A program made the translations under genes and the position numbers. From contig CAVWWD010000011.1 of the NCBI GenBank assembly GCA_963758635.1, positions 134,510 through 198,509 of the forward strand: a DNA stretch of 64,000 nucleotides, given 5' to 3'. Below, piece after piece: positions 18,072 to 41,470 of this stretch. The notes beneath the pieces are model-generated. The model saw only the letters and a program-made list of their open reading frames with translations, was not told the DNA's origin and made no database searches. This stretch comes from an uncultured Candidatus Rokubacteria bacterium. GTDB taxonomy: Bacteria; Methylomirabilota; Methylomirabilia; Rokubacteriales; CSP1-6. How positions within the stretch are numbered: the stretch's first letter is position 1; each line of letters begins with the position of its first letter.

Positions 18072-19298
18072 ATGGACTTCCGCCTCACCGAGGCGCAGCG
18101 TGAGCTGCAGGAGCGCGCTCGCCGTCTCTCCCGTGACTTCGCCACGCGCGCCGCACAGCACGATCGCGACGCGACCGACCCGTTCGAGAACTACGCCGCG
18201 CTCCACGACGCCGGCTTCTACGCGCTCAACGTGCCGCGCGAGCTCGGCGGCGCCGGCGTGGGGCTGCTCGACTGGTCGCTAGCCGCCGAGGAGCTGGGTC
18301 AGGGCTGCGCATCGACGGCGCTGTCGTTCAACATGCACCTGTCCGTGGTGGGGCCGGTCATGGAGAGCCCGCGGGTGCCGGCGGCGGTCAAGGAGCGGCT
18401 GGCCAAGATGGTGGCCCAGGACGGCAAGCTGATCGGCGGCAACTTCTCCGAGCCGACCACCTCCGGGCTGGTCGCCACGCCGGCGCCGCTCACGCGGGCG
18501 CGTCGGGCGGACGGCGGCTACCGCATCACCGGCCGCAAGGCGTTCGCCTCGATGATCGCCGCGGCCGACTACGTCATGGTGATGGCGTACCCGGACGAGG
18601 CGACCTCGCCCACCGCGGCCATGCTGCTGCTGGTCCCGCCGGACGCCCCGGGACGCCGCGTCGACCGCGTATGGGACACGCTGGGCATGCGCGCGACGCG
18701 GAGCGATTCCATGGTCCTCGAGGACTGCTGGGTGCCCGAGGAGGCGCTGCTGTACCGGTCGGACGACATCGTCCCGTTCCGTCGCGACGGCGCCAACTGG
18801 TTCTGGGCCTCGTACACGCCGGTGTACCTGGGGATCGGCGTGGCCGCGTACAACGCGATCGTGGACAACGTGAAGGCGCGCACGCCGCCCGGCTTCTCCC
18901 AGCCCCTCGCCTACCACCCGGACGTGCGCCGCCACGTGGCGGAGATGAACGCGGACCTGGAAGCGGCGCGGCTCCTCACGCTCCACTCGGCCTGGCTCAG
19001 CGACACCGAGGGCCCGACGCCGGCCACGCTCGCCGCGCTCTATCGCGCCAAGTTCGCGGTCGGCGAGGCCGTGACCCGCGTGACCCGCACCGCGATGACG
19101 CTCGGCGGCGCCCACGCGCTGTTCAGGACATCGCCGCTCGAGCGCTACTTCCGGGACGGGGCGGTGGCGCCCGTGCAGTTCCCTCCCCGCGACTTCTGCC
19201 TGACCACGCTGGGCATGCTCGCGCTCGGTCTCGACCCCCGCGACGTGCTGCCGCCGCTCCGGAGCGACCGCGCGGACGCCGGGCCCACCGTGCGCTGA
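18072..19298 (+). CDS. acyl-CoA dehydrogenase family protein (intact copy)
   Basis: ATG 18072 within ORF 17904..19298. MDFRLTEAQRELQERAR.., WDTLGMRATRSDS, TLGGAHALF. Its 3' 870 nt recur at 31159-32030 and, internally deleted, at 34617-34809. Confidence 0.9.
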   Translation: MDFRLTEAQRELQERARRLSRDFATRAAQHDRDATDPFENYAALHDAGFYALNVPRELGGAGVGLLDWSLAAEELGQGCASTALSFNMHLSVVGPVMESPRVPAAVKERLAKMVAQDGKLIGGNFSEPTTSGLVATPAPLTRARRADGGYRITGRKAFASMIAAADYVMVMAYPDEATSPTAAMLLLVPPDAPGRRVDRVWDTLGMRATRSDSMVLEDCWVPEEALLYRSDDIVPFRRDGANWFWASYTPVYLGIGVAAYNAIVDNVKARTPPGFSQPLAYHPDVRRHVAEMNADLEAARLLTLHSAWLSDTEGPTPATLAALYRAKFAVGEAVTRVTRTAMTLGGAHALFRTSPLERYFRDGAVAPVQFPPRDFCLTTLGMLALGLDPRDVLPPLRSDRADAGPTVR

Positions 19299-19338
19299 CC
19301 GCCCCCGTCCCGACATAACCGCCCACACTCGGACGCTC

Positions 19339-19402
19339 TCGCCTCGGCACCCCCAGGAGCCGACGCCACATCGCCTCGGCCCCCCAGGAGCCCGACGCCA
19401 CA
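19339..19402. repeat. 2 x 32-bp tandem direct repeat
   Basis: tcgcctcggcacccccaggagccgacgccaca / tcgcctcggccccccaggagcccgacgccaca. Lies between the ACAD stop and an AAA-ATPase gene stub. A degenerate single copy follows ACAD copy 2 at about 32049-32078. Confidence 0.6.
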
Positions 19403-19667
19403 GCAGATGCGGCATGCCCCGCGCATAGGCGATTGAGCGGCCCCGGAGCACGCGCCAGCCGTCGACGTGGGGCGACCGGGTGAACTCCCAGTGGAGGCGG
19501 GATTTCCCCACGCCGGCCTCGCCCACGATGGCGACGACCTGCCCGTTCCCCGCGGCGGCCTGCTCGAGCGATCGGCGGAGTGCTGCGATCTGGGCGTCCC
19601 GGCCGACGAATGGGGTGAACCCGCGCCGCGCGGCGGCCTGCACCACGCCAGGGCGTTCGCCCGACAA
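19398..19667 (-). pseudogene. AAA-ATPase regulator fragment (Walker A region only)
   Basis: ..FTPFVGRDAQIAALRRSLEQAAAGNGQVVAIVGEAGVGKSRL.. (first 90 aa of ORF 18279..19667). Sense is lost exactly at the 32-bp repeats. Confidence 0.55.
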
Positions 19668-19687
19668 GTCAAAGCATTACATTCCTA

Positions 19688-22600
19688 TCACGGGGATCTT
19701 GGCCGTCCTCGCTGACGGCTGGTCGACACAGCGGTGCGCTCGAGTCCCGCGAGCAGCGCCTTCGCCTCCCTCAGGTCAGCCGTGTCGAACCCCTCGGTGA
19801 ACCACCCGTAGAACGTCCGAGAGCAGCGCGTGGGCGTCCTTCTCCCTCCCCTGCCGCGCCAACAGCCGGCTCAGGCTCGTCGCCGCACGCACCTCGAACG
19901 ACTTCGCTCGTTGCCGCCGGGCTATCTCGAGGGCCTCGCGAAAGGCTGCCTCGGCCGTCTCCTCCGCGGCCGTACGGGCCGGTGGGGATTGACCGTCGGC
20001 GCCGGCGGACTTGCGTCCCGTCCTGCGGGCCTCCCCCCCTGGCCCCGCCTGAAGCGTGAGCGTGCCCATCACCCGATGGAGCTCTGCCGCCCAGTAGTGA
20101 TTCCCGGACTCGGTCCCCAGAGCCAAGGCCTCACGGACCAGAGCCAGTCCCTCTGCCGGCTGCCCGAACCTGCCATGCACCTCGGCCAGCCAGGCCAGGT
20201 ACACCGGGAGCAGGGCGAGCGCCCGGATGTCCCGGCACGCCGCCACCCACGCCCGCATCAGCGCGAGGCCTTGCTCGTCTCGACCCTGTTCCGTCAGCCA
20301 CCAGCCACGGTGGAACCGTGCCGCTCGGAGCAGGGCGTCGAAGCCATGCTCGGTCGACATGGCGATGCAGGCCTCCGCCTGCTCGCGGACCGCGTCGCGC
20401 TCTCCCAGACAGAGATAGAAGCCGGCGGCGAAGCGCTGGATGTGGGCCAGGGTGAACGGCTGAGCGATCGAACGGGCCAGCGCCAGGGTCTCGTGCATCC
20501 GCGCGGAAGCCTGCGCAGGATAGCCGAGCACCCACAGCGTCCAGGCCGCGTAAAAGGTACTCGACGCGCCCGAATCGACGATGAGGGCAAACGAGGGTGA
20601 GCGGGCCGGGCTGTACAGCGTGATCCCTTGCTCCAGATGCGTGCGCGCGGCCTCGAATTCGCCCGCGTAGAACGACACGAGCCCCAACCGATGGTGGGCC
20701 GCAAGGAGAACGGCCGGATCCTGGGTCGTCTCTGCCATGGTCAGGAGGCGGTTCCCCACCTCGCGTGCCGCCCGTAAGGATCCCCGAGTGAGATAGAACC
20801 AGCCGAGTCCGAGCAAGACCGGCAGGAGCTCCGGGACATCGCCCGCCTGCTCGCTGAGCTCAAGGGCGCGCTCGTAGGTCTCCTCGACCTCCGGCGTGGT
20901 GGGTCCGCTCATCGCCGTGAGCGCCGAGCCGAGCATCATGTGGAGCACGGTCAGCTTCAGGGGCGTTCGTTCAGGCGAGTCGGGGAGCGCCTTCAGCAGC
21001 TCCAGGGCTCGGGTCGCGTGCTCGGCGGCTTCGCGGTAGCCGTGCTGGCGCAACGCATGCTCCCCTGCCTGTCGCCGATACCGCACCGCCCGCTCAACGT
21101 CGCGACCGTGCTCGAAGTGCATCGCGAGCTCCCCGGCAATCTCGGCGGCGCGCTCGCCGTGGCCGCGCTCGAGCAGCTCGCCGGTCCGCAGGTCGAGGCC
21201 AACTCGGCGGGCGAGAGGGATCCGCGCATATAGCACGTTCCGGTACAGCGCGTGGATGAAGGCATACCGTCCGGCAACGGTCCCATCGGGCCATTCCGCC
21301 AGCCCCGTGGCGCGCAGGAACTGGCCTCGGCGCGCGAGCCCCTCGCAGAGCCGCTCGCCCTCCTGCGGGTCGAGCCCCCCGGCGGCCGCCACGGCCGTCG
21401 AGAACTCCGCGCCCGCCACGCTCGCCACGGCCAGCATCGCCTGCTCGTCCACCGTCAGCCGGTCGACGTGCTTCTCGACGATCTGCGCGAGCGTCTCCGG
21501 CGTGTCCCGGGCGATCTCCGGCACCGGCACGGACAGCCCCCAGCGCCCCTCGACCTCGCGCATCTGCCCCCGGGCGATCAAGTAGTCGATCGTGCTCACG
21601 ACGAAAAGCGGGTTGCCGTCCGTACTCCGGTGAAGGACGGTGACCAGCTCCAAAGGGAAGTCGTGGTGGGGGAAGCGCTGGAAGAGATACTCCCCGATCG
21701 CCGCGAGATCCAGGAACTCGAGGGGAAGCTCCTCGCAGTGGCCGTGCAGCTGGAGCTCTTGCTTCACCGGCCGGAGCGGATGCGCACTGGCGGCCACGTC
21801 GGCCGGCCGGTAGGTCCCGAGCACGAGCACGCGGGCCGGCTCCCGCCGGCGAGCCAGCCTCGCCAGGAGGTCGATGGTGGACGCGTCGCTCCAGTGCAGG
21901 TCTTCCAGAACGAGCACGAGCGGCGCCTCGTGGCTGAGGGCGTCGACCGCGTCAGCCAGCTCCCTCAGCATCCGATCGCGCGTCGCGCCCTGCGCCCGGC
22001 GCTGTACCGCCTCCAGGTCGCGATCGCTCAGCAGTGACGGCAGCGCAAGGAGCCACGTCGGCGCGTGCTGGCGCAGGATCTCGATGAGCTGTTCGCCTCC
22101 GGTCTCGCGGCCCAATCGTCCGAGCGCCTCGAGCACGGGCAGGTAGGCCTCACCCGCGCCGTACTGCTCCACGCATTGCCCCCGCCCGATGCGCAGCGCC
22201 GTGCCATCGCCGAGCTCCGCCAGGAACGCGTCGACCAGAGTCGTCTTCCCGATCCCCGGCTCGCCGGTCACGAACACGAGCTGTCGCTGCCCGTCTCGCG
22301 CTCGCCCCCATCGGTCGCGCAGCAGCCCCAGCTCCGCGTCGCGGGCCACCAAACACGAGCTCGCTCGCAAGGCGGTGGCGGGACGCCGGCCGGCGCCGGC
22401 GCGGATCGGCGCCGGCCGGGCGATCGGGCCGATGAACCGGAACCCTCGGCGGTGCACCGTTTCGATGTAGCGCGGCGCGCGCGAGGAGTCGCCGAGCGCC
22501 CGGCGCAGATCGCGGATGCAGCTGGTCAGGGCGGCATCGCTCACCACCACGTCACCCCAGACGCTCGCCAGCAGGGCGTCCTTCGTGACCAGCCGCGCCG

Positions 22601-22826
22601 AATGCTCGACGAGGTGCCGCAGGACCGAGAATACCCGCGGCTCCAGCTCCAAGCGGCGCTCCCCGCACCACGCCCACTCGTTCTCGGCCTCGATCCAGAT
22701 GGGAGCGAGGTCTCTGGTGCCGTTGGGCCTCGCGCGCCGATCCCGGCTCGCCCGCGATATCCCCTGAGTAAGCCCTGGGTTTCCCTCGGACTTCGGCCCG
22801 CGGTCGCCGGTAGCGTGGTGACTCAT
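19688..22826 (-). CDS. OmpR/PhoB-type winged-helix + AAA ATPase + TPR transcriptional regulator, frame interrupted near the C-terminus
   Basis: ORF 19776..22847. wHTH (..LVTKDALLASVWGDVVVSDAALTSCIRDLRRALGD..YIETVHRRGFRF), Walker A GEPGIGKTTL and a long TPR-like tail. Removing one nt near 19813 gives the family-typical end ..VYGWFTEGFDTADLREAKALL.., with the stop at 19688-19690. Confidence 0.8.
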
Positions 22827-22880
22827 TAGTGGCGACCGCGCACGCAACGGTCAGGAGCGGAAGCGCAGGAGGGAGAGCTG

Positions 22881-23240
22881 ATGCCGCCGCCGGGGGGATC
22901 GGGCCTGTCAGTGCACCGCGCGTTCGTCGTCCACCTCAACGCGGCGGGAGGCCCCACTCGCCGCCGCTTCAGCGGTCGGGTGGAGCACCTCTCGTCGGGT
23001 CGGACGGCGCAGTTCTCCTCGCTCACGGGATTGCTGGCATTCTTCGGCGAGTTCCTCGCGGACCCTCGGCCGCGGAGCGTCCCCCAAACCCCGACGGGGC
23101 CTGCAGAGTACCACCCCGCACGAGGCCGCTCAACCAAGCTGCGGAGGCCGAGCCGCTGGTCGTCATCGACCCCGGTGGGCGTGATCGCGGCGTCGAGCGG
23201 CGACATCACCCGAAGCCCGGGCTCGTTCCCGGCGAGATAG
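22881..23240 (+). CDS. small hypothetical protein
   Basis: ATG 22881 preceded by AGGAGGGAG, divergent from the regulator. Only the N-terminal ~55 aa (SVHRAFVVHLNAAGGPTRRRFSGRVEHLSSGRTAQFSSLTGLLAFFGEFL) look protein-like, so the 3' end is uncertain. Confidence 0.4.
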   Translation: MPPPGGSGLSVHRAFVVHLNAAGGPTRRRFSGRVEHLSSGRTAQFSSLTGLLAFFGEFLADPRPRSVPQTPTGPAEYHPARGRSTKLRRPSRWSSSTPVGVIAASSGDITRSPGSFPAR

Positions 23241-23324
23241 GAGAAACGCATGACGACCCCGAATCGATGCCCATCGCGTCTGATCGCTCCGATCACCCTC
23301 GCGCGCGCGAGAGGAGGCCGAGAG

Positions 23325-24608
23325 GTGTACACGAGGATTCGGAAGCTTTGGCGTCTGGTCACGGCGATGACCCTCGCGATCGGGCTGGCCGCGCCGATCG
23401 CGCCGAAGGCCGAAGCAACCCAGGATCTGTTTTACTTCTTGCCCATGGCGAAGGCCAGCGCCAACGGAGAGGTGGGTGTGTTCGACTTCGACGCGCTGAT
23501 CTCCGGTCAGCTCGGCGACGATCTCCCCCGGAAGGCCCAAGCGTCCGAGACGAGCCTGGGCACCGGCTATGCGACAGCCGAAGCCAGCGACAATCAGTTC
23601 GTGGCAACAGCCGCCTGCAGCGGGTTCGGCGGCGCCGACGCACGGGCGTTCATGGAGTTCGTAGTCCACGACCCGCAGGCCCGCGGGCTGGTCAAGGTGA
23701 ATTTGGGTTCCAAGATGGCAGGCACACCAGACAAAAGCCTCAAGGGAGCCGTGAGCGTGGGAGGGCCGCCGGTCGACTTCGGTGCCTCGGATGCGCTGGT
23801 GGGCGTTCGCGTGGCTCCCGGCGGCTCGCCGTTCATGATTACCCTTGCCGACGATGGGAGCATCTTCTCCTTGGAGGAGCCGATGCCGTTGTCAGGGGAC
23901 TACGACCTGTTCGATGCGAGCGCTTCGGCCCAATGCATGGTGGACGGGTGCCGGTGGCGGAAGACCGTCCGTCTAAACCAAACGGTGATCGATGGAGGGG
24001 AAGGCGACGGTCCGCTCGCGACACTGAACCTCTCCCCGACCTTCAGCGTCCTGCCGGGACTGTCCTTCGTGATCGGCATCCAGGCGTCGTGCAGTGGCAA
24101 TGCCACGGCCGTCATCGACCCGGTGCTGGAGCCCCACCCCGACAACCCGGACATCCTCATCGAGTTCCCCCACGCCGTCCCCGACCCGAACCCGCTGCCA
24201 CCGATGGCCGGCATCACGCCCGACGCACTGCTGGCCCTGGGGATCGACCCTCAGCCGTTCATCGATCTCGGCTTCATCGAGGAATCGTCGCCCCCGCCCC
24301 CTCCGACGGGTGACACAACGCCGCCCACCACGCTGGCGTCGGCGACGCCCAGGCTCAAGCGGTGGAACAAGACGCCCGTGACGGTCCTATTGAACGCCAC
24401 CGACGACGCGGCCGGCTCGGGCGTCAGGGAAGTGCACTACGCGCTCCAGGGGGCCGAGACGGGCTCCGAGGTGATCCCCGGCGGCAGCGCCCCCGTCACG
24501 ATCTCCGCCGAGGGGACCACGACACTGAGCTACTTCGCGGTCGACAACGAGGGCAACCAGGAGACCGCGAAGACGCTCACGGTCCGCATCCGACCCCAGC
24601 GGCGGTGA
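23325..24608 (+). CDS. secreted protein with C-terminal Ig-like (OmpL47/chitobiase-type) domain
   Basis: GTG 23325 after GAGGAGG. Signal peptide LVTAMTLAIGLAAPIAPKAEA. C-terminus follows the D-T-T-P-P-T ..W..PVTV..ATDD..SGV..Y....AVDNEGNQE pattern. GC is lower than background. Confidence 0.65.
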   Translation: MYTRIRKLWRLVTAMTLAIGLAAPIAPKAEATQDLFYFLPMAKASANGEVGVFDFDALISGQLGDDLPRKAQASETSLGTGYATAEASDNQFVATAACSGFGGADARAFMEFVVHDPQARGLVKVNLGSKMAGTPDKSLKGAVSVGGPPVDFGASDALVGVRVAPGGSPFMITLADDGSIFSLEEPMPLSGDYDLFDASASAQCMVDGCRWRKTVRLNQTVIDGGEGDGPLATLNLSPTFSVLPGLSFVIGIQASCSGNATAVIDPVLEPHPDNPDILIEFPHAVPDPNPLPPMAGITPDALLALGIDPQPFIDLGFIEESSPPPPPTGDTTPPTTLASATPRLKRWNKTPVTVLLNATDDAAGSGVREVHYALQGAETGSEVIPGGSAPVTISAEGTTTLSYFAVDNEGNQETAKTLTVRIRPQRR

Positions 24609-24671
24609 CGAGTGCCCCAACAGGAGCTCGGGCGACTCCTCACGTTGGACCGCCTCTTATCCGACAGGCCT

Positions 24672-24696
24672 GGAGGGGGGGATTCTGCCCCCCTCC
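24672..24696 (+). terminator. GC-rich hairpin downstream of the secreted-protein gene
   Basis: GGAGGGGGG (24672-24680) pairs with CCCCCCTCC (24688-24696). No following T-run, so terminator function is uncertain. Confidence 0.3.
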
Positions 24697-24727
24697 AACC
24701 ACAAACGGCAGACGGTCCTCCGGCTCC

Positions 24728-24934
24728 GTCGACACCGGCCTCCTCAGCTGGGAGGCGGGCTTCCTGGCCGGCCGGTGCTTCCTCCAGTACCGGCGAAGAG
24801 GCGGCGCCCGGCGGTCACCGCTTCCGGATTTCTTCATCGGGGCCCACGCCGCAGTCCGCCAGATGGTCCTGGTGACGAGGGATCCCCTGCGGTACCGGAC
24901 CTATTTTCCGAGAGTGCAGCTCGTCACTCCCTGA
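24728..24934 (+). pseudogene. vapC: PIN-domain (VapC) toxin, C-terminal remnant
   Basis: ..AGRCFLQYRRRGGARRSPLPDFFIGAHAAVRQMVLVTRDPLRYRTYFPRVQLVTP* matches VapC C-termini. The N-terminal half and the antitoxin gene are absent. Confidence 0.6.
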
Positions 24935-25112
24935 ACCGACGCCTTGGGCCGCGTGACGAAAGGTGCCGAGACGAGCGGTGTGGCGCGGGAGACGGTTGAC
25001 GCGCTCCGCCCGGAAGGCGATCCTGCGCGTGGCCGGGCCGGAGGGGACCGGGCGGCTCGACCAGGCGGGGCGAGCGGGCCATGAATTCACCGGACGACAC
25101 GGTGAGGCGTAT

Positions 25113-26174
25113 ATGACTGCAAGGCTGCCGGAACGCGGTCGATCCTGGGACGATCTCTCCCGGGCGATGGCAGATCTGGATCGCTCGCGTGGTCGCGTGA
25201 TCTCCATCCTCCACCGGGCTGCATGGGCATCTCTCTGCGTCGCCCTGCTGATCGGAGCGATCTTTCAGGAGGTCCCGGCGCAGTCCGGGAAGCTGATCGA
25301 CGCCTCCGTCGTGACGCTGAGAGACGAGGAAGTCCGCAGGCTGGAAGTGGGGCAGCCCGACATCCGCGCGATCCTGGGCGGTGTCGAGATCAAGTCCATC
25401 GCATATCTCAGCGACGATCTGAGGGTCAAGGGCTACCTGGTCGCCCCCCGGAGGGGCGAGAGGCTGCCGTGCGTGATCTACAACCGCGGGGGTAACCGCG
25501 AGTTCGGTGCCCTCACCGACCTCAGCGCGGCCGGCCTGCTGGCCCGGATCGCGTCGTGGGGATACGTGGTCGTCGCCAGTCAGTACCGTGGCACCGCCGG
25601 CGGCCAGGGCAAGGACGAGTTCGGTGGGAGCAACGTCGGTGACGTGCTCAACCTCCTCCCGCTCCTGGGCGCATTGCCCCAGGCCGACCCCACCCGGGTC
25701 GGCATGTACGGCTGGAGCCGCGGCGGGATGATGACGTACCTCGCGCTGGCCAGGACAGATCGGATCGCGGCGGCCGTCGTGGCTTCGGGGGTGGCCGACC
25801 TCGAGGACAACGCCAGGCGGCGCCCAGAGATGGAGACGGGCGTGTTCGCCCAGCTCATCCCGGAGTACGCCAGCGACAGAGAAGCCGCCCTGGCCGCGCG
25901 TTCGGCGGTGAGGTGGCCGGACAAGCTCCACAAGCGCACGCCCATGCTGCTGCTGCACGGCGGCGCGGACTGGCGAGTGCACCCGGGTCAGGCCCTCGCC
26001 ATGGCCTCGAAGCTCTACGAGAGCCGACATCCGTTCCGGTTCGTGTTCTTCGAGGGCGGGGATCACGCGCTGGGCGAGCACCGCGGGGAGGTCGATCGTC
26101 TGGTCAAGGAGTGGCTCGACGCGTACGTACGCGACCGGAAGCAATGGCCGAGCCTCGAGCCGCACGGCCGCTGA
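25113..26174 (+). CDS. S9-family (prolyl-oligopeptidase/dienelactone-hydrolase-like) alpha/beta hydrolase
   Basis: Nucleophile elbow GWSRGG, later GGADWRV and GGDHAL. N-terminal hydrophobic anchor AAWASLCVALLIGAIF. The start (ATG 25113) is approximate. Confidence 0.8.
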   Translation: MTARLPERGRSWDDLSRAMADLDRSRGRVISILHRAAWASLCVALLIGAIFQEVPAQSGKLIDASVVTLRDEEVRRLEVGQPDIRAILGGVEIKSIAYLSDDLRVKGYLVAPRRGERLPCVIYNRGGNREFGALTDLSAAGLLARIASWGYVVVASQYRGTAGGQGKDEFGGSNVGDVLNLLPLLGALPQADPTRVGMYGWSRGGMMTYLALARTDRIAAAVVASGVADLEDNARRRPEMETGVFAQLIPEYASDREAALAARSAVRWPDKLHKRTPMLLLHGGADWRVHPGQALAMASKLYESRHPFRFVFFEGGDHALGEHRGEVDRLVKEWLDAYVRDRKQWPSLEPHGR

Positions 26175-26294
26175 TCGAGCTTTCCCGCACCCTAGAGGAG
26201 AGGCGGTAGCCGGTACCACGAAGCCGCCTGCCCGACCGACGGTAACGGTCGCGCTTCGCTCACCACCTCCCCGGCGACATCGCCGCCGTCAGTT

Positions 26295-26750
26295 TTACCG
26301 TGAGAGGGCGAACACCAGCTCGTGGGCCTCTCGTTCGACCTTGCGATTGATCTGGGTGGTGACGTCGAACGTCCCGTGGATCAGGCCCCAGCTCGCCATC
26401 CAGTCCCACGCCCAGCGCGCCTCGTCCTCCGGAATCGGCGTCGGCTCCCTGAGCTGGATGCGGCCGAGGTTGAAATCGTCGCTGCCAGTGCCTGGACAAC
26501 GGCGATGGCCCGCGGACGACCCTTCCTGAATGCGGACTGTGGCGTCGCTCTGTCGGCGATCCAGGACCAGTCCGGCTGGTACTACGATCTGCGCGACGCG
26601 CGCAGGAAGCCGAGCGCAAGCGCCGTGGAGGCCCAGGGGCGAATCGCCGACTTCCGAGACGATCGTTGCCCGGGGCATCGGACGCCGAGCTCCGTGAAGT
26701 GGAAGGCACATCGAGGCCGCGCAGGAGCTGTCGAAGAGCCCCAACGCCAA
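26295..26750 (-). CDS. hypothetical protein (weak call)
   Basis: 151-aa ORF. Only the C-terminal ~60 aa (SDDFNLGRIQLREPTPIPEDEARWAWDWMASWGLIHGTFDVTTQINRKVEREAHELVFAL) look protein-like. Lower-GC stretch. Confidence 0.3.
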   Translation of the reverse strand: MALGLFDSSCAASMCLPLHGARRPMPRATIVSEVGDSPLGLHGACARLPARVAQIVVPAGLVLDRRQSDATVRIQEGSSAGHRRCPGTGSDDFNLGRIQLREPTPIPEDEARWAWDWMASWGLIHGTFDVTTQINRKVEREAHELVFALSR

Positions 26751-26885
26751 GACATCGTCCTCGGCGACAAGACTGGCCTGCCCATCATCCTCAGCGACAA
26801 GTAGCCGGTTGCTGAGCAGGCACCTGGAGCAGTCATCGGCGCCCCGGGACGGATGGGAGCTGCGGACGGCATCGTCCGAGCGCGG

Positions 26886-28478
26886 TCAGCACTTGATGAT
26901 CCTGAACTCGACGCGCCGGTCGAGGGCATCGCGCGCGTCATCGGTGCCCGTCCCGACGAGGTTCTCGCGGAAGCCCATGCCGGATGTCCGGACGCGCGGC
27001 GTCAATGCGCGCGCTTCCGCGTCGAGGCGCTCCCTGATGTAGACGGCCCGCTGGTGGGACAGGCGATCGTTGAACTGCTCGGAGCCGGTCCGGCTCGCGT
27101 GCCCCACGACGTGCACGCATACGTTCGCCGTCATCGCCTGCCGCGCGATCTGCCGGAGCCACATCCCGTACGGACCGCTGACCTTGGGATCCGACCAGAA
27201 CTCCGTCGTTCCCGGAAGGAACAGGAACTTCACGCCGAGATTGTTGTTGCGCAAACCATGCGCGACGACGCTCCCGAAGGCCGTCTCCGCCTCGCTCGCG
27301 CGGCCGAGCTTCGAGGTTGCGAGATAGATCCCGTTCACGACCCGGAGCTGGTCGCCCGAGGGCGTCGCGGCCGCCGTCTGGTAGAGCGTCAGCGCCTCCT
27401 GGTAGCGCTCGCCGTTGTACGCGCCCAGGGCCTCGCTGATGACGGCCGCGGTCGCCACCCGCTCGAAGTAGATCGGATCCGCGGCGCGCCCGGGCGCGGT
27501 CTCGGCGGTGTTGATGTGGCCGTCGACGACCCCGTCCTTCACCAGGACCGGACTGTCGCGATAGTACGGCGTGGGCGTCGTATCCAGCGCGTCGTCCCTG
27601 GCGCGTGACGATGCGCGGGCGACGACGGTTCCCGTCCTCATGTCGGTGAGCGCCAGGTTGATCTGGAACACGTCACGGGCCGCCGGCTGCGCGTCAGCCA
27701 CGCGCCGCGTCGTCCCGGTCAGCAAGTACTTCGCGTCCCTCAGCCGGGGGACCTGGAAGGGCAGCAGCTCCACTCGGGCATGGGCGCGGAGCCGGTCGGC
27801 CACCTGCTGCTCCAGCAAGCGTGTGGCCGCCGTCTGCTGCCCGGAGACGGCGTCCAGCATGGAGTCGATGACGACCCCGAGCTTGTCGGGGCTGGCCAGG
27901 ACTCCCGGCAGCTTCTGCAGCTGGCTGATCAACCCGTCCACGGCTGCCGTGATGGCCTCGGCAAGCCGCAGCTCCTCTGTCGAGTCCGCCGGCAGCACCG
28001 TGATCGAGATCGCCACACCCTCCGCGCGCAGGCCACGCGGCGCTTCCGTGAACCTCCCGGGGGATTCTCCCAACGGTCCATCGCGGGCCACCACGGTGGT
28101 CTTCACGTTAATGATGGCGTCAAGCTCGTCGCCGTACCTCGTGTAAGCCGCGTTTCGCAGATGCTGCCTCGCTCCGTCCGCGGCCCCGGGAAGGTCGGAG
28201 GTCCGCAGGCCTCCCAGGGTGGCCTCCACGGGGCCAAGGACCCTGTGCGGAGCATCGAGGCCGCCCTCGAGGAGGGCGATCGTCTTGACGGGCGTCTTGA
28301 GGCTCGCGGGGTCGGGAATCGTCGGCACGTCGGGAATCGTCGGCACGGAGGCACAGGCCCCGAGCAGCACCACGAAGCCGGCGAGGGCGAGCCCTCGCCC
28401 ACGCGGCCATGGGCGTGGCCACCGTCCGCGGTCTTGATCCTGCGGCATGGGGCGGCTCTCGCGATTCATCGCGCTCAT
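26886..28478 (-). CDS. OmpA-family lipoprotein
   Basis: ATG 28478. Lipobox LAGFVVLLGAC. VPTIPD-VPTIPD repeat. C-terminal OmpA-like domain (VVGHASRTGSEQFNDRLSHQRA..NLVGTGTDDARDALDRRVEF). Confidence 0.75.
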   Translation of the reverse strand: MSAMNRESRPMPQDQDRGRWPRPWPRGRGLALAGFVVLLGACASVPTIPDVPTIPDPASLKTPVKTIALLEGGLDAPHRVLGPVEATLGGLRTSDLPGAADGARQHLRNAAYTRYGDELDAIINVKTTVVARDGPLGESPGRFTEAPRGLRAEGVAISITVLPADSTEELRLAEAITAAVDGLISQLQKLPGVLASPDKLGVVIDSMLDAVSGQQTAATRLLEQQVADRLRAHARVELLPFQVPRLRDAKYLLTGTTRRVADAQPAARDVFQINLALTDMRTGTVVARASSRARDDALDTTPTPYYRDSPVLVKDGVVDGHINTAETAPGRAADPIYFERVATAAVISEALGAYNGERYQEALTLYQTAAATPSGDQLRVVNGIYLATSKLGRASEAETAFGSVVAHGLRNNNLGVKFLFLPGTTEFWSDPKVSGPYGMWLRQIARQAMTANVCVHVVGHASRTGSEQFNDRLSHQRAVYIRERLDAEARALTPRVRTSGMGFRENLVGTGTDDARDALDRRVEFRIIKC

Positions 28479-29909
28479 CGGCAGTCCCTCGTCAGCATGC
28501 TCTGCTCCTCGTCCGTCAGGGGGTCTCCGAGTGATGCGCGCTCCAGGATGTCGCTGCAGCGAAATGAACGTCCGGTCCCGGCCTGGCGGCGCCCCCGGCG
28601 GGGCGAGGGCGGGCGACTGACGCCCCGCGTGCACCCTCTCCGGCTTCTTGCGGACCGGACTCGTAGCGACCGCGTCGCGCTCGGTGAGAGGACGGAGCAC
28701 CACGGGCGGCGCCGGTGGCCCTCCGGAAGGTACCGCAGCCTGCTCGACCCCAGAGGGTGCGCTCGGCCGGGTAGCCTCGGGCTGCTCGCTCGTCGCCGCC
28801 GGTCGGCCGCCTTGATGCTGCGTTGCAGGGGCCTTGACGCTGGGAACCGTCGAAGGCGTCGGAGACAGCCACAGCACACTGCCGAGCCCGACCACAGTGA
28901 CCGCGGCGACGACCATCATGGCGAGCGCCCCGAGACCGAGACGCCGTGGCGTATCGGCGGGCGCAGGGCCGGCCGGGGCCAGATCTTCCTTCCCGGCACG
29001 CGGTCGGACGTCGTCGGACCGCGCCTCAGGGTGCCCGAGAAGTCGATCATCCAGGTCATCGGTGTGCGTGTCGAGCCCCCTCACCGCCTCTGCGGAGAGA
29101 CCTCGCCGTACTGTCTCGAGCTCCACGCGCATCGTGCTGAAGTCGGGGAAGCGCTCCGCCGGATCCTTGCGCATCGCCCGGGCGATTGCCGCAGCCAACG
29201 CCGGCGGGATTCCCCGATCCAGCTCATCGAGCGCCGGTGGATCCTCCGTCTGAAGCATCTCGAGCAGCTGGATCGGCTCCGTGGCGAGGAACGGCGGACG
29301 CATGCTCAGGAGCTCGTAGAAGACCGAGCCCGCGGAGAAGATGTCCGAGCGATGATCCATCCGCCCCCGCATCTGCTCGGGTGATGCATAGCGAAGACTT
29401 CCCAGGACTCGCCCGGCGATCGTGAGGACGCTCTCGGCATTCACCAGGTGAGCGATCCCGAAATCGAGGATCTTCGCACGACCGCTGAGCGTGAGGAAGA
29501 TGTTGCTCGGTTTGATGTCGCGGTGGACGATCCCCTTGCCGTGCGCGTGCTCCAGGCCCTCGCACACCTGGATCATGATCGAGACCTTGTCCCGTAGCGC
29601 GAGGCGGGTGCGCTTCGCGATCACCTGCTTGAGGTCCTCGCCTTCGAGGAGCTCCATGACGATGAAGGGCTGGCCATCATCGTCGCCCATCCCGTACACG
29701 GTGACGATGTTGGGATGGTTCAGCAGGACACCGGCCCGGGCTTCGCGGCGCAGCCGGGCCCGCAGCTCGTCGGTGCAAACGGCTTCCGTCGAGATCACCT
29801 TCAGCGCGACGAGCCGGTCGAGACGCGGGTCGTGGGCCTTGTAGATCGTGCCCATGCCCCCGCGTCCGATAGGTCCGACGATCTGGTAGTTGCCGATCCT
29901 CTCAGGCAT
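28475..29909 (-). CDS. Ser/Thr protein kinase with one TM helix; 3' end ambiguous
   Basis: ATG 29909. GPIGRGGMGTIYKA, ALKVI, HRDIKPSNIF, DFG. TM LGLGALAMMVVAAVTVVGLGSVLWL. The kinase frame runs without a stop into the lipoprotein gene. A neighbouring frame ends ..SDILERASLGDPLTDEEQSMLTRDCR* with its TGA overlapping the lipoprotein ATG (ATGA at 28475-28478). Confidence 0.8.
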
Positions 29910-30559
29910 CGGGCGCGCCGCTCTTCCTCGCGGGCTCACGATGGCCTGAGCACGCGAGGTTGTGTCGGTCGAGTCGCACCCTGGCGTCGCCGCCACCGTC
30001 TCCCCCTGTTTCGCCGGCGCCGGGAGCCCCGAGGCAGACGGCAACCGGATGACGCTTCCTCCCCTGCGACCGGTCGATGTGCCCGTCCGATCCTGCCCCA
30101 TGCCGCCGGCTCGCGCGCTCAGCTGAAGACTGGCGCATCCGCGAGGAATTCTAGCCCAGCCGCGCGGTCCGGGCGCTCCGCTCCCCCCCGGAAGAAGGGT
30201 GGAGATGCCCAATCACGTTCAGCCAGTGTGCGATGCGGAAGGCGTGCCGTTTCGCGGATGCGTCCGCGAACCGGTCGCCTACCGCTGGAAATCGGCCAGA
30301 TACGGGAAGCCGATGCGAGAAGACGCCCGGAGTGTCGGTATCAGATGCGCTTGGTTCGGGTGAAACGCCTGAGTTTCCGTCCTCGCGCCGGGCAGGGCTC
30401 CGCGCGGTCGCCTCCGCGACCCCGACCAGCCAAGCCGGGAGCCGGCCTCCAGGCACGCCTCACGTGACCTTCGAGACACCGAGGTCATCGAGGAGTGAAC
30501 CGCCCCGGCTTTCCCGGAGGCTCCACTCCTTGAGAGGATGGGGCCACACGCGGCTTCTT

Positions 30560-31025
30560 GCTCCGGGGGGACGTTGATGGCGCGGCCCCGTGGATGGAAC
30601 GCGCGCTGGCCGTCGCCGATGTCAACGACCTCACGTTCCAGCGACATCTCGCCGCGGTCGCGATGGGCTACCTGAGGAGTCTCCTGGGATATGCGCGCGA
30701 GTCGTGCGACAGCGTCGAGGAGAGCGTGACCGCGCTCAAAGCAAGGGGCAACGCCCTCCTGGGGTGGACTTCATGGTTCGGCCTGACGCTGGTACGTGCA
30801 GGGCGAAGGGGCCGCGCCATCGCTTTGGCGGAGGAGATGATGGTCCTGGCGCGACGGACGAACCTCAAGGTCGTCGAGGCGTTGGCCCTGCATCTGCTCG
30901 CCGAGGCCACGGAGGCGCCCGGCGAGGGCCGCGACGGCGCGCGGGCGACGCAGAGCTATCGCGAGTCGCTGGCGCGGGCCGATGAGCTATCCATGCGCCC
31001 GCTCGCGGCTCACTGTCACGCCGGG
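30560..31025 (+). pseudogene. C-terminal TPR fragment of an AAA/TPR (cyclase- or LuxR-associated) regulator
   Basis: ..ALHLLAEATEAPGEGRDGARATQSYRESLARADELSMRPLAAHCHAG follows the conserved end-pattern (..ELGMRPLxAHCHLGLG..) and then loses homology. There is no N-terminal part upstream. Confidence 0.55.
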
Positions 31026-31157
31026 CAGCCGTCGTTGGCCCGCGCGAGGGAGCCGGTGTGGGCGTTGCCCAGCATGGAGCCGAAGGCGAAGATCGTCTCG
31101 TACTCCGCCATTTTGGCCTCGAGGCCGGCGAGCTCCCCGTCGCGGATCTCGTACTGC
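31016..31157 (-). pseudogene. unidentified gene fragment abutting ACAD copy 2
   Basis: The minus strand reads ..KQYEIRDGELAGLEAKMAEYETIFAFGSMLGNAHTGSLARANDG..*. Composition is protein-like, and it is cut at its N-terminal side exactly at the repeat boundary (31158/31159). Confidence 0.3.
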
Positions 31158-31158
31158 T

Positions 31159-32030
31159 TGGCGGCAACTTCTCCGAGCCGACCACCTCCGGGCTGGTCGC
31201 CACGCCGGCGCCGCTCACGCGGGCGCGGCGGGCGGACGGCGGCTACCGCATCACTGGGCGCAAGGCGTTCGCCTCGATGATCGCCGCGGCCGACTACGTC
31301 ATGGTCATGGCGTACCCGGACGAGGCGACCTCGCCCACGGCGGCCATGCTGCTGCTGGTCCCGCCGGACGCCCCGGGACGCCGCGTCGACAACGTATGGG
31401 ACACGCTGGGCATGCGCGCGACGCGCAGCGACTCCATGGTCCTCGAGGACTGCTGGGTGCCCGAGGAGGCGCTGCTGTACCGGTCGGACGACATCGTCCC
31501 GTTCCGTCGCGACGGCGCCAACTGGTTCTGGGCCTCGTACACGCCGGTGTACCTGGGGATCGGCGTGGCCGCGTACCACGCGATCGTGGACAACGTGAAG
31601 GCGCGCACGCCGCCCGGCTTCGCCCAGCCCCTCGCCTACCACCCGGACGTGCGCCGCCACGTGGCGGAGATGAACGCGGACCTGGAAGCGGCGCGGCTCC
31701 TCACGCTCCACTCGGCCTGGCTCAGCGACACCGAGGGCCCGACGCCGGCCACGCTCGCCGCGCTCTATCGCGCCAAGTTCGCGGTCGGCGAGGCCGTGAC
31801 CCGCGTGACCCGCACCGCGATGACGCTCGGCGGCGCCCACGCGCTGTTCAAGACGTTGCCGCTCGAGCGCTACTTCCGGGACGGGGCGGTGGCGCCGGTA
31901 CAGTTCCCTCCCCGCGACTTCTGCCTGACCACGCTGGGCATGCTCGCGCTGGGCCTCGACCCCCGCGACGTGCTGCCCCGCTCCGGAGCGACCGCGCGGA
32001 CGCCGGCCCCACCGTGCGCTGACCGCCCCC
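31159..32030 (+). pseudogene. 5'-truncated second copy of the ACAD gene 3' region
   Basis: Starts at ggcggcaacttctcc (= 18435 in copy 1) and runs to ..gtgcgctgaccgcc. By eye there are about two dozen substitutions (e.g. R->N, N->H, S->A changes) and a 1-nt deletion at 31975-31980 that shifts the last 14 codons. Confidence 0.85.
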
Positions 32031-32087
32031 GGCGAAGGACGGACGCGTCGCCTCGGCCTCTTCGGGCCGACGCACACGGGCTGGCGT

Positions 32088-32205
32088 CATCGTGTGGCGG
32101 GCCGCTCCAGAGGCGTCGCCAGCAGCTCGAGGATCTCGTCCCGGTTCTGCGCCACGACCTTGGCCGCCGCGGCGGCGAGCAGCCTTGATCGTGCGCCAGA
32201 GTCGC
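32088..32205 (-). pseudogene. 3'-terminal ghost of a patatin-like gene paralogue
   Basis: The minus strand reads ..RLLAAAAAKVVAQNRDEILELLATPLERPATR*. Compare the C-terminus of the intact patatin-like gene: ..RELLAVSAAKVVQQNREYILELLATRLAPGR*. Confidence 0.5.
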
Positions 32206-32325
32206 GGGTGCGCAGGCGCTAGGCGGCGACGCTCAGGCGGAACTTGTCGGCGAACTCGGGTCGGGCGCCTGCCACCTGACGCAGGTGGAGTTGACCCGGT
32301 TCGGTGGACGGTCTCGGACTTGCGA

Positions 32326-34146
32326 TCACGCCACAACCCCGCGCTGGCGTCCGTAGTCGAATGGCACGCCCTCGAGAGCGGACGCCGATGGCGACTCTGG
32401 AGCAGGGCGCCCGGGCGCAAGCCCCACCTCGGTGAGTGCCAGCTGTGTATCGAGCACCGTCGTCGCGACGCGGTCGGCCCCGGCCGCGAGGAGGTGCCGG
32501 CGATCGGCATCCTGTTCGTCGTGGAGCCCCCACCGACCGACCACGATCTTGAGCTCCGGACACTGCGACCGCAGGCGCTTGCAGAGATGGCGCGCCTGGC
32601 TCAAGCCGCCTGGGGCTACCGCCCCGATGCAGAGGAGTGTGGGTCGGTTGAGCTCGACCCAGGCGACCACTTCGGCGGTCAGCAGCCCGGGCCCGCAGAC
32701 CTCGAGCAGGTACCGCGCAGGGTCGAGTAACTGTCGCACCATCTCGAGAGCCAAGGCATCCGCCTGATCCCGAGCGGGGCACCCTCCGATCCGAACCCGG
32801 GTGTCGGCGCCGGCGTCGTTCACGGGGAGACCCCCGGTGTCCGCCGCTGGGGCGGGAGCGTCGTGGGCGAGCGTGTCGAGGATCTCCCGGGTCGCCTGGC
32901 CCACGAACCGAGCGTCATCCTCGCTCAACAGACCGCGATCACGGTCCTGCTTGGCGTAGAAGAGCGCGGGGAGAAGTACCGCGTCGTGGACCGATTCCCG
33001 TCCGTCCGTGTTCACGTACGCCTCGACGATATCGGCCGCCTCATCCTGGTCTCGCGCGAGCAGCCGCTGATAGTAGCGCGCCTTGGCCTCGATGACGGGC
33101 CGGTCGCCCATCAGCACGACGATGAACCCCAGCGCGGGCAGGTGCTTGCCCAGGACGATGAGGCAGACGGTCAGGGGCGTCGCCAGCAGCAACCCCACCG
33201 GCCCCCAGAACCAGGACCAGAAGATCACCGCAATCAGGAGAGCGACCTGCGACACCCCGGCGCTCTGACCGTACAGCCACGGCTCCATCACCATGCTGGT
33301 GGCGAGCTCCAGCAGGAGGAACAGGCCGACGACCAGCGCGGGCTGGAGCCACCCCGGGAAGACCGCGAGACTGACGGCAAGAGGCAGCAGCGCCGCGACG
33401 AATGCCCCTATGTACGGGATGAACCGCAGAGCCGCGGCCAGGGCCCCCCAGACGACGGCGTAGGGGACCCCGATCAGGAACAGGCCGAGCCCCAGGACCA
33501 CGCCGAAACTGCCGTTGATGACGGATTGCATGAGCAGGTACCGGGCGATGCGCGCCCCCGCTTCGTCGAGCGCCCTCGTCGTCGCCGTCATCCGCCGATA
33601 GCCGATGAGCAGGATCAGCCGATCGCGGAGCTCCAAGCGCTCGAGCAGCATGAAGATCACGAGGACCGTGACGACTCCCGCGCTCGCCAGCGCCTGGAGG
33701 AGGCTTGGCAGGTGAGCGAGGATGGACGGGGGCTCCAGGACGACGGCGACCGGCCTTTGACGCGTCACGCCCAGCGTGTCCGCCTTCTGAATCTCGCCGA
33801 CGACGTCCTGCACGGCCTTCTGAACCTTCTCCACGGAGCCGCCCTTGCCGGCCCCGCGAAAGCCCGCAATCCGGTGATGGATGTTCACGCTGTACCGCGG
33901 CAGCTCGTCGGCGAGCGTCACGAGCTGGCGAGTGAGCGTCCAGCCGACCCCGCCCAGGATCGAGAGCGCGAGGAGGACGATCAGGAGGACCGAGGGCACC
34001 CGGCCTAATCCCCGCCGCTGGAGGGTGCTCACGACGGGGCTCAACAGGAACGTGAGCAGAACGGCCAGCGCCAGCGGGATCAACACGGCCTGCAGCCAAT
34101 ACAGGCCGGCCAGGACCAGCGCGACGATGACCCACCCCGAGGTCAT
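32326..34146 (-). CDS. AI-2E (PerM) family transporter fused to a C-terminal B12-binding-like (Rossmann) domain
   Basis: ATG 34146 in ORF 32326..34197. Multi-TM AI-2E body, then ~230 cytoplasmic aa ending ..RVRIGGCPARDQADALALEMV..LLCIGAVAPGGLSQARHLCKRLRSQCPELKIVVGRWG... Confidence 0.8.
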   Translation of the reverse strand: MTSGWVIVALVLAGLYWLQAVLIPLALAVLLTFLLSPVVSTLQRRGLGRVPSVLLIVLLALSILGGVGWTLTRQLVTLADELPRYSVNIHHRIAGFRGAGKGGSVEKVQKAVQDVVGEIQKADTLGVTRQRPVAVVLEPPSILAHLPSLLQALASAGVVTVLVIFMLLERLELRDRLILLIGYRRMTATTRALDEAGARIARYLLMQSVINGSFGVVLGLGLFLIGVPYAVVWGALAAALRFIPYIGAFVAALLPLAVSLAVFPGWLQPALVVGLFLLLELATSMVMEPWLYGQSAGVSQVALLIAVIFWSWFWGPVGLLLATPLTVCLIVLGKHLPALGFIVVLMGDRPVIEAKARYYQRLLARDQDEAADIVEAYVNTDGRESVHDAVLLPALFYAKQDRDRGLLSEDDARFVGQATREILDTLAHDAPAPAADTGGLPVNDAGADTRVRIGGCPARDQADALALEMVRQLLDPARYLLEVCGPGLLTAEVVAWVELNRPTLLCIGAVAPGGLSQARHLCKRLRSQCPELKIVVGRWGLHDEQDADRRHLLAAGADRVATTVLDTQLALTEVGLAPGRPAPESPSASALEGVPFDYGRQRGVVA

Positions 34147-34311
34147 GCCCGTTCCCTCGCCGAGGACGCGCGGAGTGCCGCGGAGCACGCCCGGCAAGCG
34201 ACGCGGATGATCCCTGGCGCCGGCGAGCCCGCGCCTATCAAGGGCGACGAACCCGCGCCGTTGATCGAGGCGATCGCGGCGCGGGTTCGCAGGTGCGGGG
34301 CCAGCAGGCCG

Positions 34312-34392
34312 CTACCTGCGCCAACGCGAGTATCCCCAGCCCCCACCGCCGAGTACGAACACCACCAGCAGAATGATCAACAGGGTATCCAT
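34312..34392 (-). CDS. 26-aa hydrophobic peptide (below the ORF-track cutoff)
   Basis: GGGAGGTGAGGGACGG-ATG. MDTLLIILLVVFVLGGGGWGYSRWRR*. One TM helix + basic tail. Lies upstream of, and co-oriented with, the AI-2E gene. Confidence 0.4.
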   Translation of the reverse strand: MDTLLIILLVVFVLGGGGWGYSRWRR

Positions 34393-34506
34393 CCGTCCCT
34401 CACCTCCCACTTCGTTCCTGCCAGGCGGGTTGGACTCATGTCTCCTGCCCGAATCCTTCTCGTCTGGCTCTCTCCTTTCACTCTAGGGCCGGGCCGGAAC
34501 GGTGCC

Positions 34507-34573
34507 TACTGGACATACGTCCAATGCGGGCGCTCGACCGCTGCGGGGCGTCGCGCTGGACCAAGGTCCAGTA
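34507..34573. promoter_or_regulatory. pair of related 8-4-8 palindromes (candidate operator sites)
   Basis: Site 1 is TACTGGACatacGTCCAaTG (34507-34526). Site 2 is cgcTGGACcaagGTCCAGTA (34554-34573). Shared consensus TACTGGAC-N4-GTCCAGTA. In an AT-richer spacer 115-180 nt upstream of the small ORF / AI-2E operon. Confidence 0.3.
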
Positions 34574-34616
34574 GTTGGGCGCTGTGACCTCTCGCTAGAC
34601 TTCCCGTAGACCTCCC

Positions 34617-34809
34617 GGCGGCAACTTCTCCGAGCCGACCACCTCCGGCCTGGTCGCCACGCCGGCGCCGCTCACGCGGGCGCGGCGGGCGGACGGCGGC
34701 TACCGCATCACCGGCAAGAAGGCGTTCGCCTCGATGATCGCCGCGGCCGCGTGCTGCCACCGCTCCGGAGCGACCGCGCGGACGCCGGCCCCACCGTGCG
34801 CTGACCGCC
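34617..34809 (+). pseudogene. third, internally deleted mini-copy of the ACAD 3' region
   Basis: Same left end (ggcggcaacttctcc..) for ~130 nt up to ..atgatcgccgcggcc, then jumps to the last ~60 nt (gtgctgccaccgctccggagcgacc..gtgcgctgaccgcc). Retains both ends of the 870-nt repeat. Confidence 0.8.
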
Positions 34810-36441: not shown

Positions 36442-36526
36442 GACGGTCTCCCTTCGTCGGCGCGCTCGGTCGCGCCCGGCACGACGACCGGCCTCGCGGA
36501 GTCGCGCGCCCCGGCGCCGGACGGCG

Positions 36527-38900: not shown

Positions 38901-38938
38901 CCCGGGGCGACCGATTCGGGCAGCTTCGCTGACCGCCG

Positions 38939-40491: not shown

Positions 40492-40511
40492 CCCGCGACT
40501 TCCTCGCGGAA

Positions 40512-40649: not shown

Positions 40650-40734
40650 TGCGTGCCTTATACCGCGCCGGTGCGGGGGATCATAGAGCCCGGCCAGGCG
40701 GGGAGCCTCGCGCCCGGGCAACGGGTATCCGGCC

Positions 40735-41115: not shown

Positions 41116-41199
41116 CGAACGCACTACCCCCGCCTTATGACCTGCGTCATATGAGGGCCGGCCGGCCGGCGGTAGCCTGAGCGACAGGGAGGTAGCGCC

Positions 41200-41466: not shown

Positions 41467-41470
41467 CGAC

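Follow-up and report, generated by a model that had tools for sequence, protein, structure and literature searches.

Three copies of an acyl-CoA dehydrogenase gene end bracket acquired DNA in an uncultured Candidatus Rokubacteria genome

Introduction

Integrative and conjugative elements (ICEs), integrative and mobilizable elements (IMEs) and cis-mobilizable elements (CIMEs) accrete in tandem at the 3′ ends of protein-coding genes, as exemplified by the streptococcal elements at fda. At icd, prophage e14 and phage 21 supply a phage-borne replacement 3′ end of ~165 bp, which is introduced by an integrase at a defined core, and the prophage-borne ends differ mostly synonymously from the native end. 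Displaced 3′ fragments are also found at rhs, cdiA and type VI secretion system (T6SS) effector-immunity loci, where they represent variable toxin tips with their immunity genes. Here we analyse a locus with a related appearance, namely a stretch of 64,000 nt from an uncultured Candidatus Rokubacteria bacterium (hereafter, the window) in which the 3′ end of an acyl-CoA dehydrogenase (ACAD) gene is present three times and brackets two segments of other genes. Two precedents operate by recombination between homologous sequences. In conjugation experiments with E. coli, partly degraded and re-circularised linear DNA was integrated by a single crossover, such that 109-950 bp of the homologous gene became duplicated around the insert (PMC3240628). 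In homology-facilitated illegitimate recombination, one homologous anchor is combined with one illegitimate joint (PMC3240628).

Results

Three copies of the ACAD gene end share both boundaries

The window spans positions 134510-198509 of contig C11 (267 kb; CAVWWD010000011.1), which belongs to an assembly of 6.17 Mb in 12 contigs with 71% G+C (GCA_963758635.1). The nearest kin of its ACAD gene are found in metagenome-assembled genomes (MAGs) of Candidatus Rokubacteria and Methylomirabilota, with orthologues from Rokubacteria MAGs and metagenomes sharing 75-99% amino acid identity. A first reading of this DNA (the original prediction) had proposed that the ACAD 3′ end occurs three times, which we confirm at positions 18435-19303, 31160-32027 and 34617-34809:

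18072-19298, plus strand: intact ACAD gene, 408 aa from an ATG start (Pfam Acyl-CoA_dh_N/M/1/2), the conserved anchor
18435-19307, plus strand: copy 1, the working ACAD 3′ end (codons 122-408 plus 9 nt)
31160-32031, plus strand: copy 2, displaced and lacking the 5′ third, with a 1-nt deletion at unit position 819
34617-34809, plus strand: copy 3, what remains of the native ACAD 3′ end (unit positions 1-133 and the last 60 nt)

The repeated unit is 869 nt long (18435-19303 in copy 1, 31160-32027 in copy 2) and its left boundary coincides with codon 122 of ACAD, the start of the middle domain. The common start and end ascribed to the copies by the original prediction also hold, the left boundary being exact and aligned at G18435, G31160 and G34617 (GGCGGCAAC, in its longer form GGCGGCAACTTCTCC) and the right edge (CTGACCGCC, …GTGCGCTGACCGCC) falling at 19303, 32027 and 34809. 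Four extra bases (CCCG) past the unit end are common to copies 1 and 2. These two copies are 97.5% identical across 879 nt (BLAST), and within the coding unit they are separated by 19 substitutions and one 1-nt deletion, close to the deletion and "about two dozen" substitutions that had been counted by eye. Owing to the deletion, the last ~14 codons of copy 2 are out of frame, and copy 3 bears an internal deletion of 676 nt that leaves only 133 and 60 nt in place. Copy 1 completes the 408-aa gene and copies 2 and 3 lack codons 1-121, as would be expected for a Campbell-type duplication. No fourth copy of the unit is found in the 6.17-Mb assembly.

The differences between copies 1 and 2 fall predominantly at third codon positions (13 of 19, P=0.002), with a ratio of nonsynonymous to synonymous substitution rates (dN/dS) of 0.16. 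This low ratio and the third-position excess indicate that copies 1 and 2 acquired their differences while still functional, each in its own lineage, and were brought together later, rather than having decayed in place.

Close relatives reveal an empty site and a mosaic right-hand block

Informative contigs from relatives (L176, L177 and L179-L181) were drawn from clusters at a minimum of 90% identity. An empty site of the kind sought by the original prediction is present in L179 (JGI 3300038383), which is 95-96% identical to the window and has ACAD directly convergent with the gene for a metallo-β-lactamase (MBL)-fold hydrolase. Specifically, L179 is 95.7% identical to positions 38107-34750 and carries the patatin and MBL genes, followed by the ACAD 3′ end, which continues without interruption for 218 nt until the contig stops. 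The DNA between ACAD and the MBL/patatin operon in the window is therefore acquired, as had been proposed. In addition, the intergenic flank of L179 (GCGGCGCGCCGGGC…) is the same as the flank to the right of copy 3, and since this flank follows an uninterrupted ACAD gene in L179, copy 3 represents the native gene end. The right-hand part of the window region comprises the following features:

31025-31159, minus strand: AOR′, an internal 135-nt piece of an aldehyde:ferredoxin oxidoreductase (AOR)-type gene (88% nt and 87% aa identity to C10:13013-14941)
32098-32183, minus strand: ghost of a patatin-gene 3′ end (81% to 36538-36617 and 80% to the L179 patatin end; also in L176)
32219-32286, minus strand: final ~22 codons of a gene for a LuxI-type autoinducer synthase, with a clean deletion point at 32286/32287
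32329-34146, minus strand: AI-2E family transporter (Pfam PF01594), the core of segment B
34575-34616: 42-nt filler that separates copy 3 from the last bases in common with L176 (…CCAGTAG)
34855-36441, minus strand: MBL-fold hydrolase (Pfam), native neighbour
36527-37954, minus strand: patatin-like lipase (Pfam), native neighbour

Much of this arrangement is reproduced in L176 (ENA ERZ25039469), which comes from a sample separate from that of the window. The order in L176 is unrelated DNA, a short GC-rich spacer (95% identical to that after copy 1), an 860-nt AOR′ piece, the identical joint, an in-frame ACAD unit (97% to copy 2), the patatin ghost, LuxI and HHH genes, the AI-2E gene (99.2%), ~165 unrelated nt, the last 14 nt of ACAD and then the MBL-patatin operon. 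The joint between AOR′ and copy 2, which reads …GTACTGCTTG followed by GCGGCAAC…, fuses an antisense internal piece of an AOR gene to internal ACAD sequence. It thus has the character of a novel joint expected at the closure point of a Campbell-type event, and it recurs identically in L176, where the AOR fragments match Pfam AFOR_C. A complete LuxI-type gene (Autoind_synth) and an HHH_3 open reading frame (ORF) are found at L176:2911-4476, and these 1.57 kb are absent from the window. In L176, the place of the 42-nt filler is taken by the unrelated ~165 nt. The sequences to the left of copies 2 and 3 exhibit no similarity above shuffled controls, either to each other or to the 5′ part of ACAD.

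Identity to L176 is mosaic along the window, reaching 99.2% in segment B (window 32286-34574 against L176:4477-6766) and 97% in the copy 2 region, compared to 92% in the native MBL/patatin genes. The MBL-patatin stretch (34855-37954) is collinear with both L179 (95.7%) and L176 (92.3%). The contrast between 99% and 92% identity shows that segment B moved laterally between lineages. The patatin ghost is a leftover of a junction at which ACAD and patatin converged in a different lineage.

Accessory content differs among the relatives (L176, L177 and L180/L181), as the original prediction had anticipated. L177 (ENA ERZ25039531) begins within the last 15 nt of ACAD and is collinear with window positions 19284-30495 (94.5%), beyond which it continues into amidohydrolase and AMP-ligase genes that are both lacking in the window genome. 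In L180 (JGI 3300038383), AKR-ACAD is 96.3% identical to the window, and CTGACCGCC leads directly into other genes and an IS110 insertion sequence. L181 (JGI 3300038383) starts with IS110 and proceeds through the hydrolase-to-kinase part of the left-hand segment (97-99%) to the L177-type amidohydrolase gene. L180 and L181 show two linked pieces. A 51-kb JGI contig places yet another neighbour behind ACAD, such that at least four contexts part ways within a few bases after CTGACCGCC.

The left-hand segment is not a discrete island

Between copies 1 and 2 lie a spacer, a long gene-bearing block (block A) and a linker:

19308-19403: GC-rich spacer of ~100 nt with two tandem 32-nt units, after copy 1 (95% to L176:817-918)
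19404-30495: block A (Pfam), collinear with L177 and L181
19404-19643, minus strand: AAA_16 stub of a many-copy zinc-ribbon/cyclase/AAA/TPR family, in block A
19779-22826, minus strand: wHTH-AAA_16-TPR regulator (Pfam), in block A
23250-24605, plus strand: 452-aa protein with no clear Pfam match, in block A
24749-24943: 195-nt stub, 93% identical to C7:17605-17799
25113-26171, plus strand: S9 hydrolase (Pfam), in block A
26317-26481: 165-nt stub, in block A
26886-30212, minus strand: ORF for an OmpA-type protein and a Ser/Thr kinase (Pfam), in block A
30496-31024: orphan linker of 530 nt, which ties block A to the right-hand block

The gene content agrees with the original prediction, except that the 195-nt "VapC stub" has no Pfam match; indeed, none of the ten small ORFs and stubs has one. 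In contrast, the description of two clean islands, each bounded by ACAD copies, does not hold. Block A is collinear with L177 from window position 19284 to 30495 (94.4-94.7%) and with L181 (97-99%), and in these relatives it extends into other chromosomal genes and does not form a discrete element. Its relationship to the flanking sequences is also informative. In L177, the spacer is contiguous with block A, whereas in L176 it adjoins the oxidoreductase fragment instead. Since spacer and oxidoreductase fragment abut beside copy 2 in L176, block A appears to have been inserted secondarily between the two. Relative to L176, ~725 nt of the oxidoreductase fragment have been replaced, and ACAD plus spacer are common to block A and L177-type genomes, a pattern that fits a one-sided, homology-anchored insertion.

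No homologue of the linker at 30496-31024 is found in the genome or the fetched loci, nor does it have a Pfam match or a recorded protein call. Similarity to L177 and L181 stops at 30490-30495, and that to L176 starts at 31025.

Homology-anchored insertion as the favoured mechanism

We favour a model, with a confidence only slightly above even, in which the region was built by repeated homology-anchored insertions, Campbell-type or one-sided, rather than as an integrase-driven array of islands. The observed copies, junctions, empty site and mosaic identities, together with the absence of a recombinase, lead us to infer a circular intermediate, an order of events and a route of DNA entry as follows. 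In the ancestral arrangement, ACAD would have been convergent with the MBL-patatin operon. DNA of related Rokubacteria, diverged by a few percent, would then have integrated at least twice, with a crossover within the last ~870 nt of ACAD. The likeliest route would be a Campbell-type single crossover with a re-circularised fragment, to which an event with one homologous and one illegitimate end would be equivalent. Every such event would rebuild an intact ACAD gene and push the prior 3′ end downstream as a dead direct repeat.

The first step would be the entry of segment B (ACAD tail, patatin ghost, LuxI, HHH and AI-2E), which would displace the native tail to become copy 3. A second piece (ACAD tail, spacer and AOR fragment) would follow, thereby generating the junction between AOR′ and copy 2. 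In the window lineage, block A and the 530 orphan nt would subsequently enter between spacer and AOR′, anchored on ACAD and the spacer, with the loss of ~725 nt of AOR′. Lastly, decay would account for the 676-nt loss in copy 3, the 1.57-kb LuxI/HHH loss and the 1-nt deletion in copy 2. Genes for two Ku homologues and for a ComEC channel are present in the window genome, which makes end-joining and DNA uptake at least possible.

Homology-driven insertion is favoured because of the dN/dS ratio, the identity contrast to L176, the varying repeat boundaries and the like layouts at other genes of the same genome. With respect to the boundaries, 148 ACAD loci were compared, taken from genomes in GTDB and from metagenomes in JGI, the best of them at 90% aa identity. 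They have no conserved downstream content, MBL/patatin genes are not nearby, and none of them provides an empty site. In one of these lineages (L116, Ga0247829_10002308), a 207-nt repeat (92%), made up of the final 145 nt of ACAD and a further 62 nt, is present at 1077-1282 and 8438-8644 and brackets a 7.15-kb insert encoding a subtilase and a zinc-ribbon/adenylate-cyclase/AAA_16/TPR protein. In another (G013), an ACAD tail of at least 547 nt (84%) lies behind a luciferase-like monooxygenase gene on another contig. Repeats of 869 nt, 207 nt and at least 547 nt, with other left boundaries, do not share a short att core, and this variation between lineages argues against a fixed att site. Of the two mechanisms that the original prediction left open, capture by homologous recombination is the one we favour over a lost integrase.

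With respect to other genes, an Amidohydro_2-type gene (400 aa) on contig C9 has its last 238 codons copied 12.4 kb downstream (723 nt, 96.4%; 422817-423569 and 435268-436470), with homology that stops 9 nt past the stop codon. On contig C8 (1737-13136), truncated second copies exist of both an Ldh_2 gene (8645-9715; 714 nt at 95.5%) and a HAD-like gene (1771-2250; 97.2%), and these second copies are fused head-to-head at ~12350-12420. The fused copies are what is left of a duplicate of the entire 8-kb region that has lost an internal part. Neither the C9 nor the C8 duplications exhibit a common boundary motif or a recombinase between the copies. The like layout at two other genes suggests that the process is common in this genome.

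Several observations weigh against this model. Repeat boundaries vary between lineages and loci, but are identical at two junctions of this window: the joints of AOR′ and of the filler with the unit, which have unrelated left flanks, fall on one and the same ACAD nucleotide. By chance, such a coincidence of two closures or joints would be expected in roughly 1 in several hundred cases, and the model therefore needs a hot spot. Furthermore, the link across 30496-31024 is seen in this MAG only and is the sole junction region that lacks independent support. The spacer in L176 is preceded by unrelated sequence, not by ACAD, so that the ancestral state of the left part is only partly reconstructed. 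Finally, both the circular form and the donor genome are inferred.

Comparison with described systems

The closest likeness is to the Campbell-type case of E. coli, where part of a gene is likewise directly duplicated around foreign DNA, with one complete and one truncated copy and with no need for a site-specific recombinase. Unlike that laboratory plasmid system, the events in the window are natural, repeated, involve lineages a few percent apart and were followed by decay, and the nucleotide shared by two of its junctions is not predicted by the E. coli experiments. Block A is reminiscent of homology-facilitated illegitimate recombination, in that it would have entered by an anchor (ACAD plus spacer) with the loss of ~725 nt of resident DNA relative to L176. 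The classic events, however, are of ~1 kb and leave the anchor unduplicated, and the joint in the window consists of 530 nt of orphan sequence.

The orphan arrays of rhs, cdiA and T6SS loci similarly comprise a full gene followed by a row of displaced 3′ fragments and are built by recombination without an integrase. The tails in the window differ in that they are 96-98% identical ACAD middle and C-terminal domains with no evident function. Taken together, we suggest that the region would work in the manner of Campbell-type insertion duplications and of rhs/cdi/T6SS displacement arrays.

By comparison, the region resembles, but is not a member of, ICE/IME/CIME accretion or the e14/icd prophage site. 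As in the accretion of such elements, an array lies behind a conserved gene 3′ end, some members are recombinase-less and empty sites occur in relatives. Accretion, however, involves att sites of tens of bases, conserved arms and a cognate integrase, whereas the window has a repeat of 869 nt, no arms and no integrase. The likeness to e14 at icd consists of an incoming alternative gene end with mostly synonymous differences and a native end that stays as a displaced copy; here, the repeat has five times the length of that at icd, and an integrase is not found.

What sets the locus apart is the 869-nt length of the tails, the strength of the comparison with relatives and the surprising breakpoint common to two unrelated junctions. 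It provides a natural case, in an uncultured soil phylum with large genomes, of a variable region that grows without mobile-element machinery and uses a conserved gene as its landing pad. Displaced gene tails of this kind may serve as markers for the order of acquisitions and for recombination between sister lineages in MAGs.

Alternative explanations

Site-specific accretion is the most probable of the alternatives, although we regard it as unlikely. According to this explanation, elements carrying an 869-nt replacement ACAD 3′ end would have inserted at a core site at GGCGGCAAC, with a recombinase that has been lost or acts in trans, as for a CIME. It would readily account for the identical left boundary of copies 2 and 3 despite their unrelated left flanks, for the sharpness of both unit ends, for the existence of an empty site in L179 and for the mostly synonymous differences between copies, as known for icd. 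However, the machinery that it calls for is not found. Tyrosine recombinase (PF00589, six-frame) has 20 matches in the genome, none of them on the 267-kb contig C11, and the one C11 match to serine recombinase (PF00239, six-frame) is located at 249095-249403, ~80 kb away. Pfam scans of the larger ORFs and of the ten small ORFs and stubs reveal no transposase or integrase, and the region from 15 to 38 kb has no match in Rfam. A 90-nt tRNA-Arg called by ARAGORN inside the S9 gene is a false call; Rfam gives no match. Thus, six-frame Pfam, ARAGORN and Rfam searches agree with the earlier statement that no recombinase or tRNA lies at the boundaries, and no recombinase is found in or near the element, where one would be expected for an integrase island.

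The same holds for relatives, with no recombinase in L176 (precomputed Pfam matches for called genes) or in the L116 insert (Pfam scans of the larger ORFs). The conserved arms at att sites that characterise a CIME are lacking, given that copies 2 and 3 have no relationship in their left flanks, and no candidate for a cognate element is found nearby. The other boundaries in other lineages, the like layout without a common motif at unrelated genes of the window genome and the indiscrete nature of block A further argue against accretion.

A narrower possibility, which we consider rather improbable, is that the nucleotide before GGCGGCAAC (codon 122) is targeted by an unrecognised site-specific activity. 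Candidates may include a recombinase acting in trans, a nicking or HUH-type enzyme, a nuclease or a Chi-like end-protection site. If true, integrase-less segments with an 869-nt replacement gene end would constitute mobile units rather than accidental scars, and an enzymatic origin of the shared breakpoint would define a new kind of integration site. No more junctions at the GGCGGCAAC nucleotide are found in other data. Four leads were discarded in this context: ACAD homologues of 295-312 aa without the N domain are ordinary genes that, on short contigs, were called from internal starts; frame breaks near the GGCGGCAAC site in three loci (L094, L056 and L062) are simple indels; the IS91-type target rule (CTTG/GTTC) fits only the AOR′ junction and was dropped; and a role for the GATC site just before the copy 1 boundary as a cleavage point is pure speculation.

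A partial assembly artefact has a similarly low probability in our estimation. Two co-occurring strains or loci, one with ACAD, spacer and block A and the other with AOR′, the unit, segment B and MBL, would have been joined across 30496-31024, such that only copies 2 and 3 are truly linked. Such a mis-join would be in line with a 530-nt linker that has no counterpart anywhere searched, with the exit of L177 and L181 at 30490-30495 and the entry of L176 at 31025, and with the origin of the MAG from a community with several close relatives. On the other hand, sequence common to both blocks, which might lead an assembler astray, is absent from the join, and the linker itself is unique rather than repetitive. 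In addition, the 19 differences that distinguish the copies are retained, and the other junctions recur in independent assemblies. Even in the event of a mis-join, the bracketing of segment B by copies 2 and 3 would hold, given that this part of the arrangement is also present in L176.

In-place tandem duplication or amplification of the ACAD tail and the DNA behind it, with later divergence and cargo replacement, is very unlikely: the copies are direct repeats in tandem order, and copies 1 and 2 are 97.8% alike compared to 96.6% for copy 2 and its positional L176 counterpart, which suggests some gene conversion within the genome, yet a dN/dS of 0.16 is unlike that of a dead duplicate, the sequences before and after the copies are unrelated and the closest relatives of the segments are found in different genomes at different identities.

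Additional features of the region

The accessory genes have a lower G+C content at third codon positions (0.80-0.90) than ACAD, MBL and patatin (0.94-0.97). The spacer has kin of ~100-150 nt, with two tandem 32-nt units, at C9:317965-318091, on contig C3 and at L176:766-918, and appears to behave as a small dispersed repeat rather than as the ancestral downstream sequence of ACAD itself.

The ORF at 26886-30212 (1108 aa) corresponds to two genes in relatives, of 475 and 530 aa with a 4-nt overlap in L181 and similarly in L177, and the kinase/OmpA fusion in the window probably results from a 1-nt indel or an assembly error. Its kinase part matches the PADLOC PD-T4-6 kinase models (E=1e-92), as may many Hanks kinases.

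Upstream of ACAD, synteny varies as well, because in L178 (Ga0633469_0040262, 2510-4978, 86% identical) the ACAD orthologue comes after an enoyl-CoA hydratase gene and a paralogue of ACAD in tandem (411 aa). Proteins of 36 aa that were listed as members of the ACAD cluster belong to an unrelated small ORF family. One such ORF (MTSEAAERF…), at L180:1845-1955, is part of a ~150-nt family with at least 15 copies in the window genome (e.g. C3:399-407 kb and C7:460-462 kb).

To the right of the patatin gene, positions 38108-41133 and 41469-43412 of the window are missing from L179 (93-96% identical), in which 255 nt separate 41134 from 38107 and 43413 directly adjoins 41468. Because both stretches are missing there, the TIR-HEAT cassette and the neighbouring ~1.9 kb are insertions in the window lineage.

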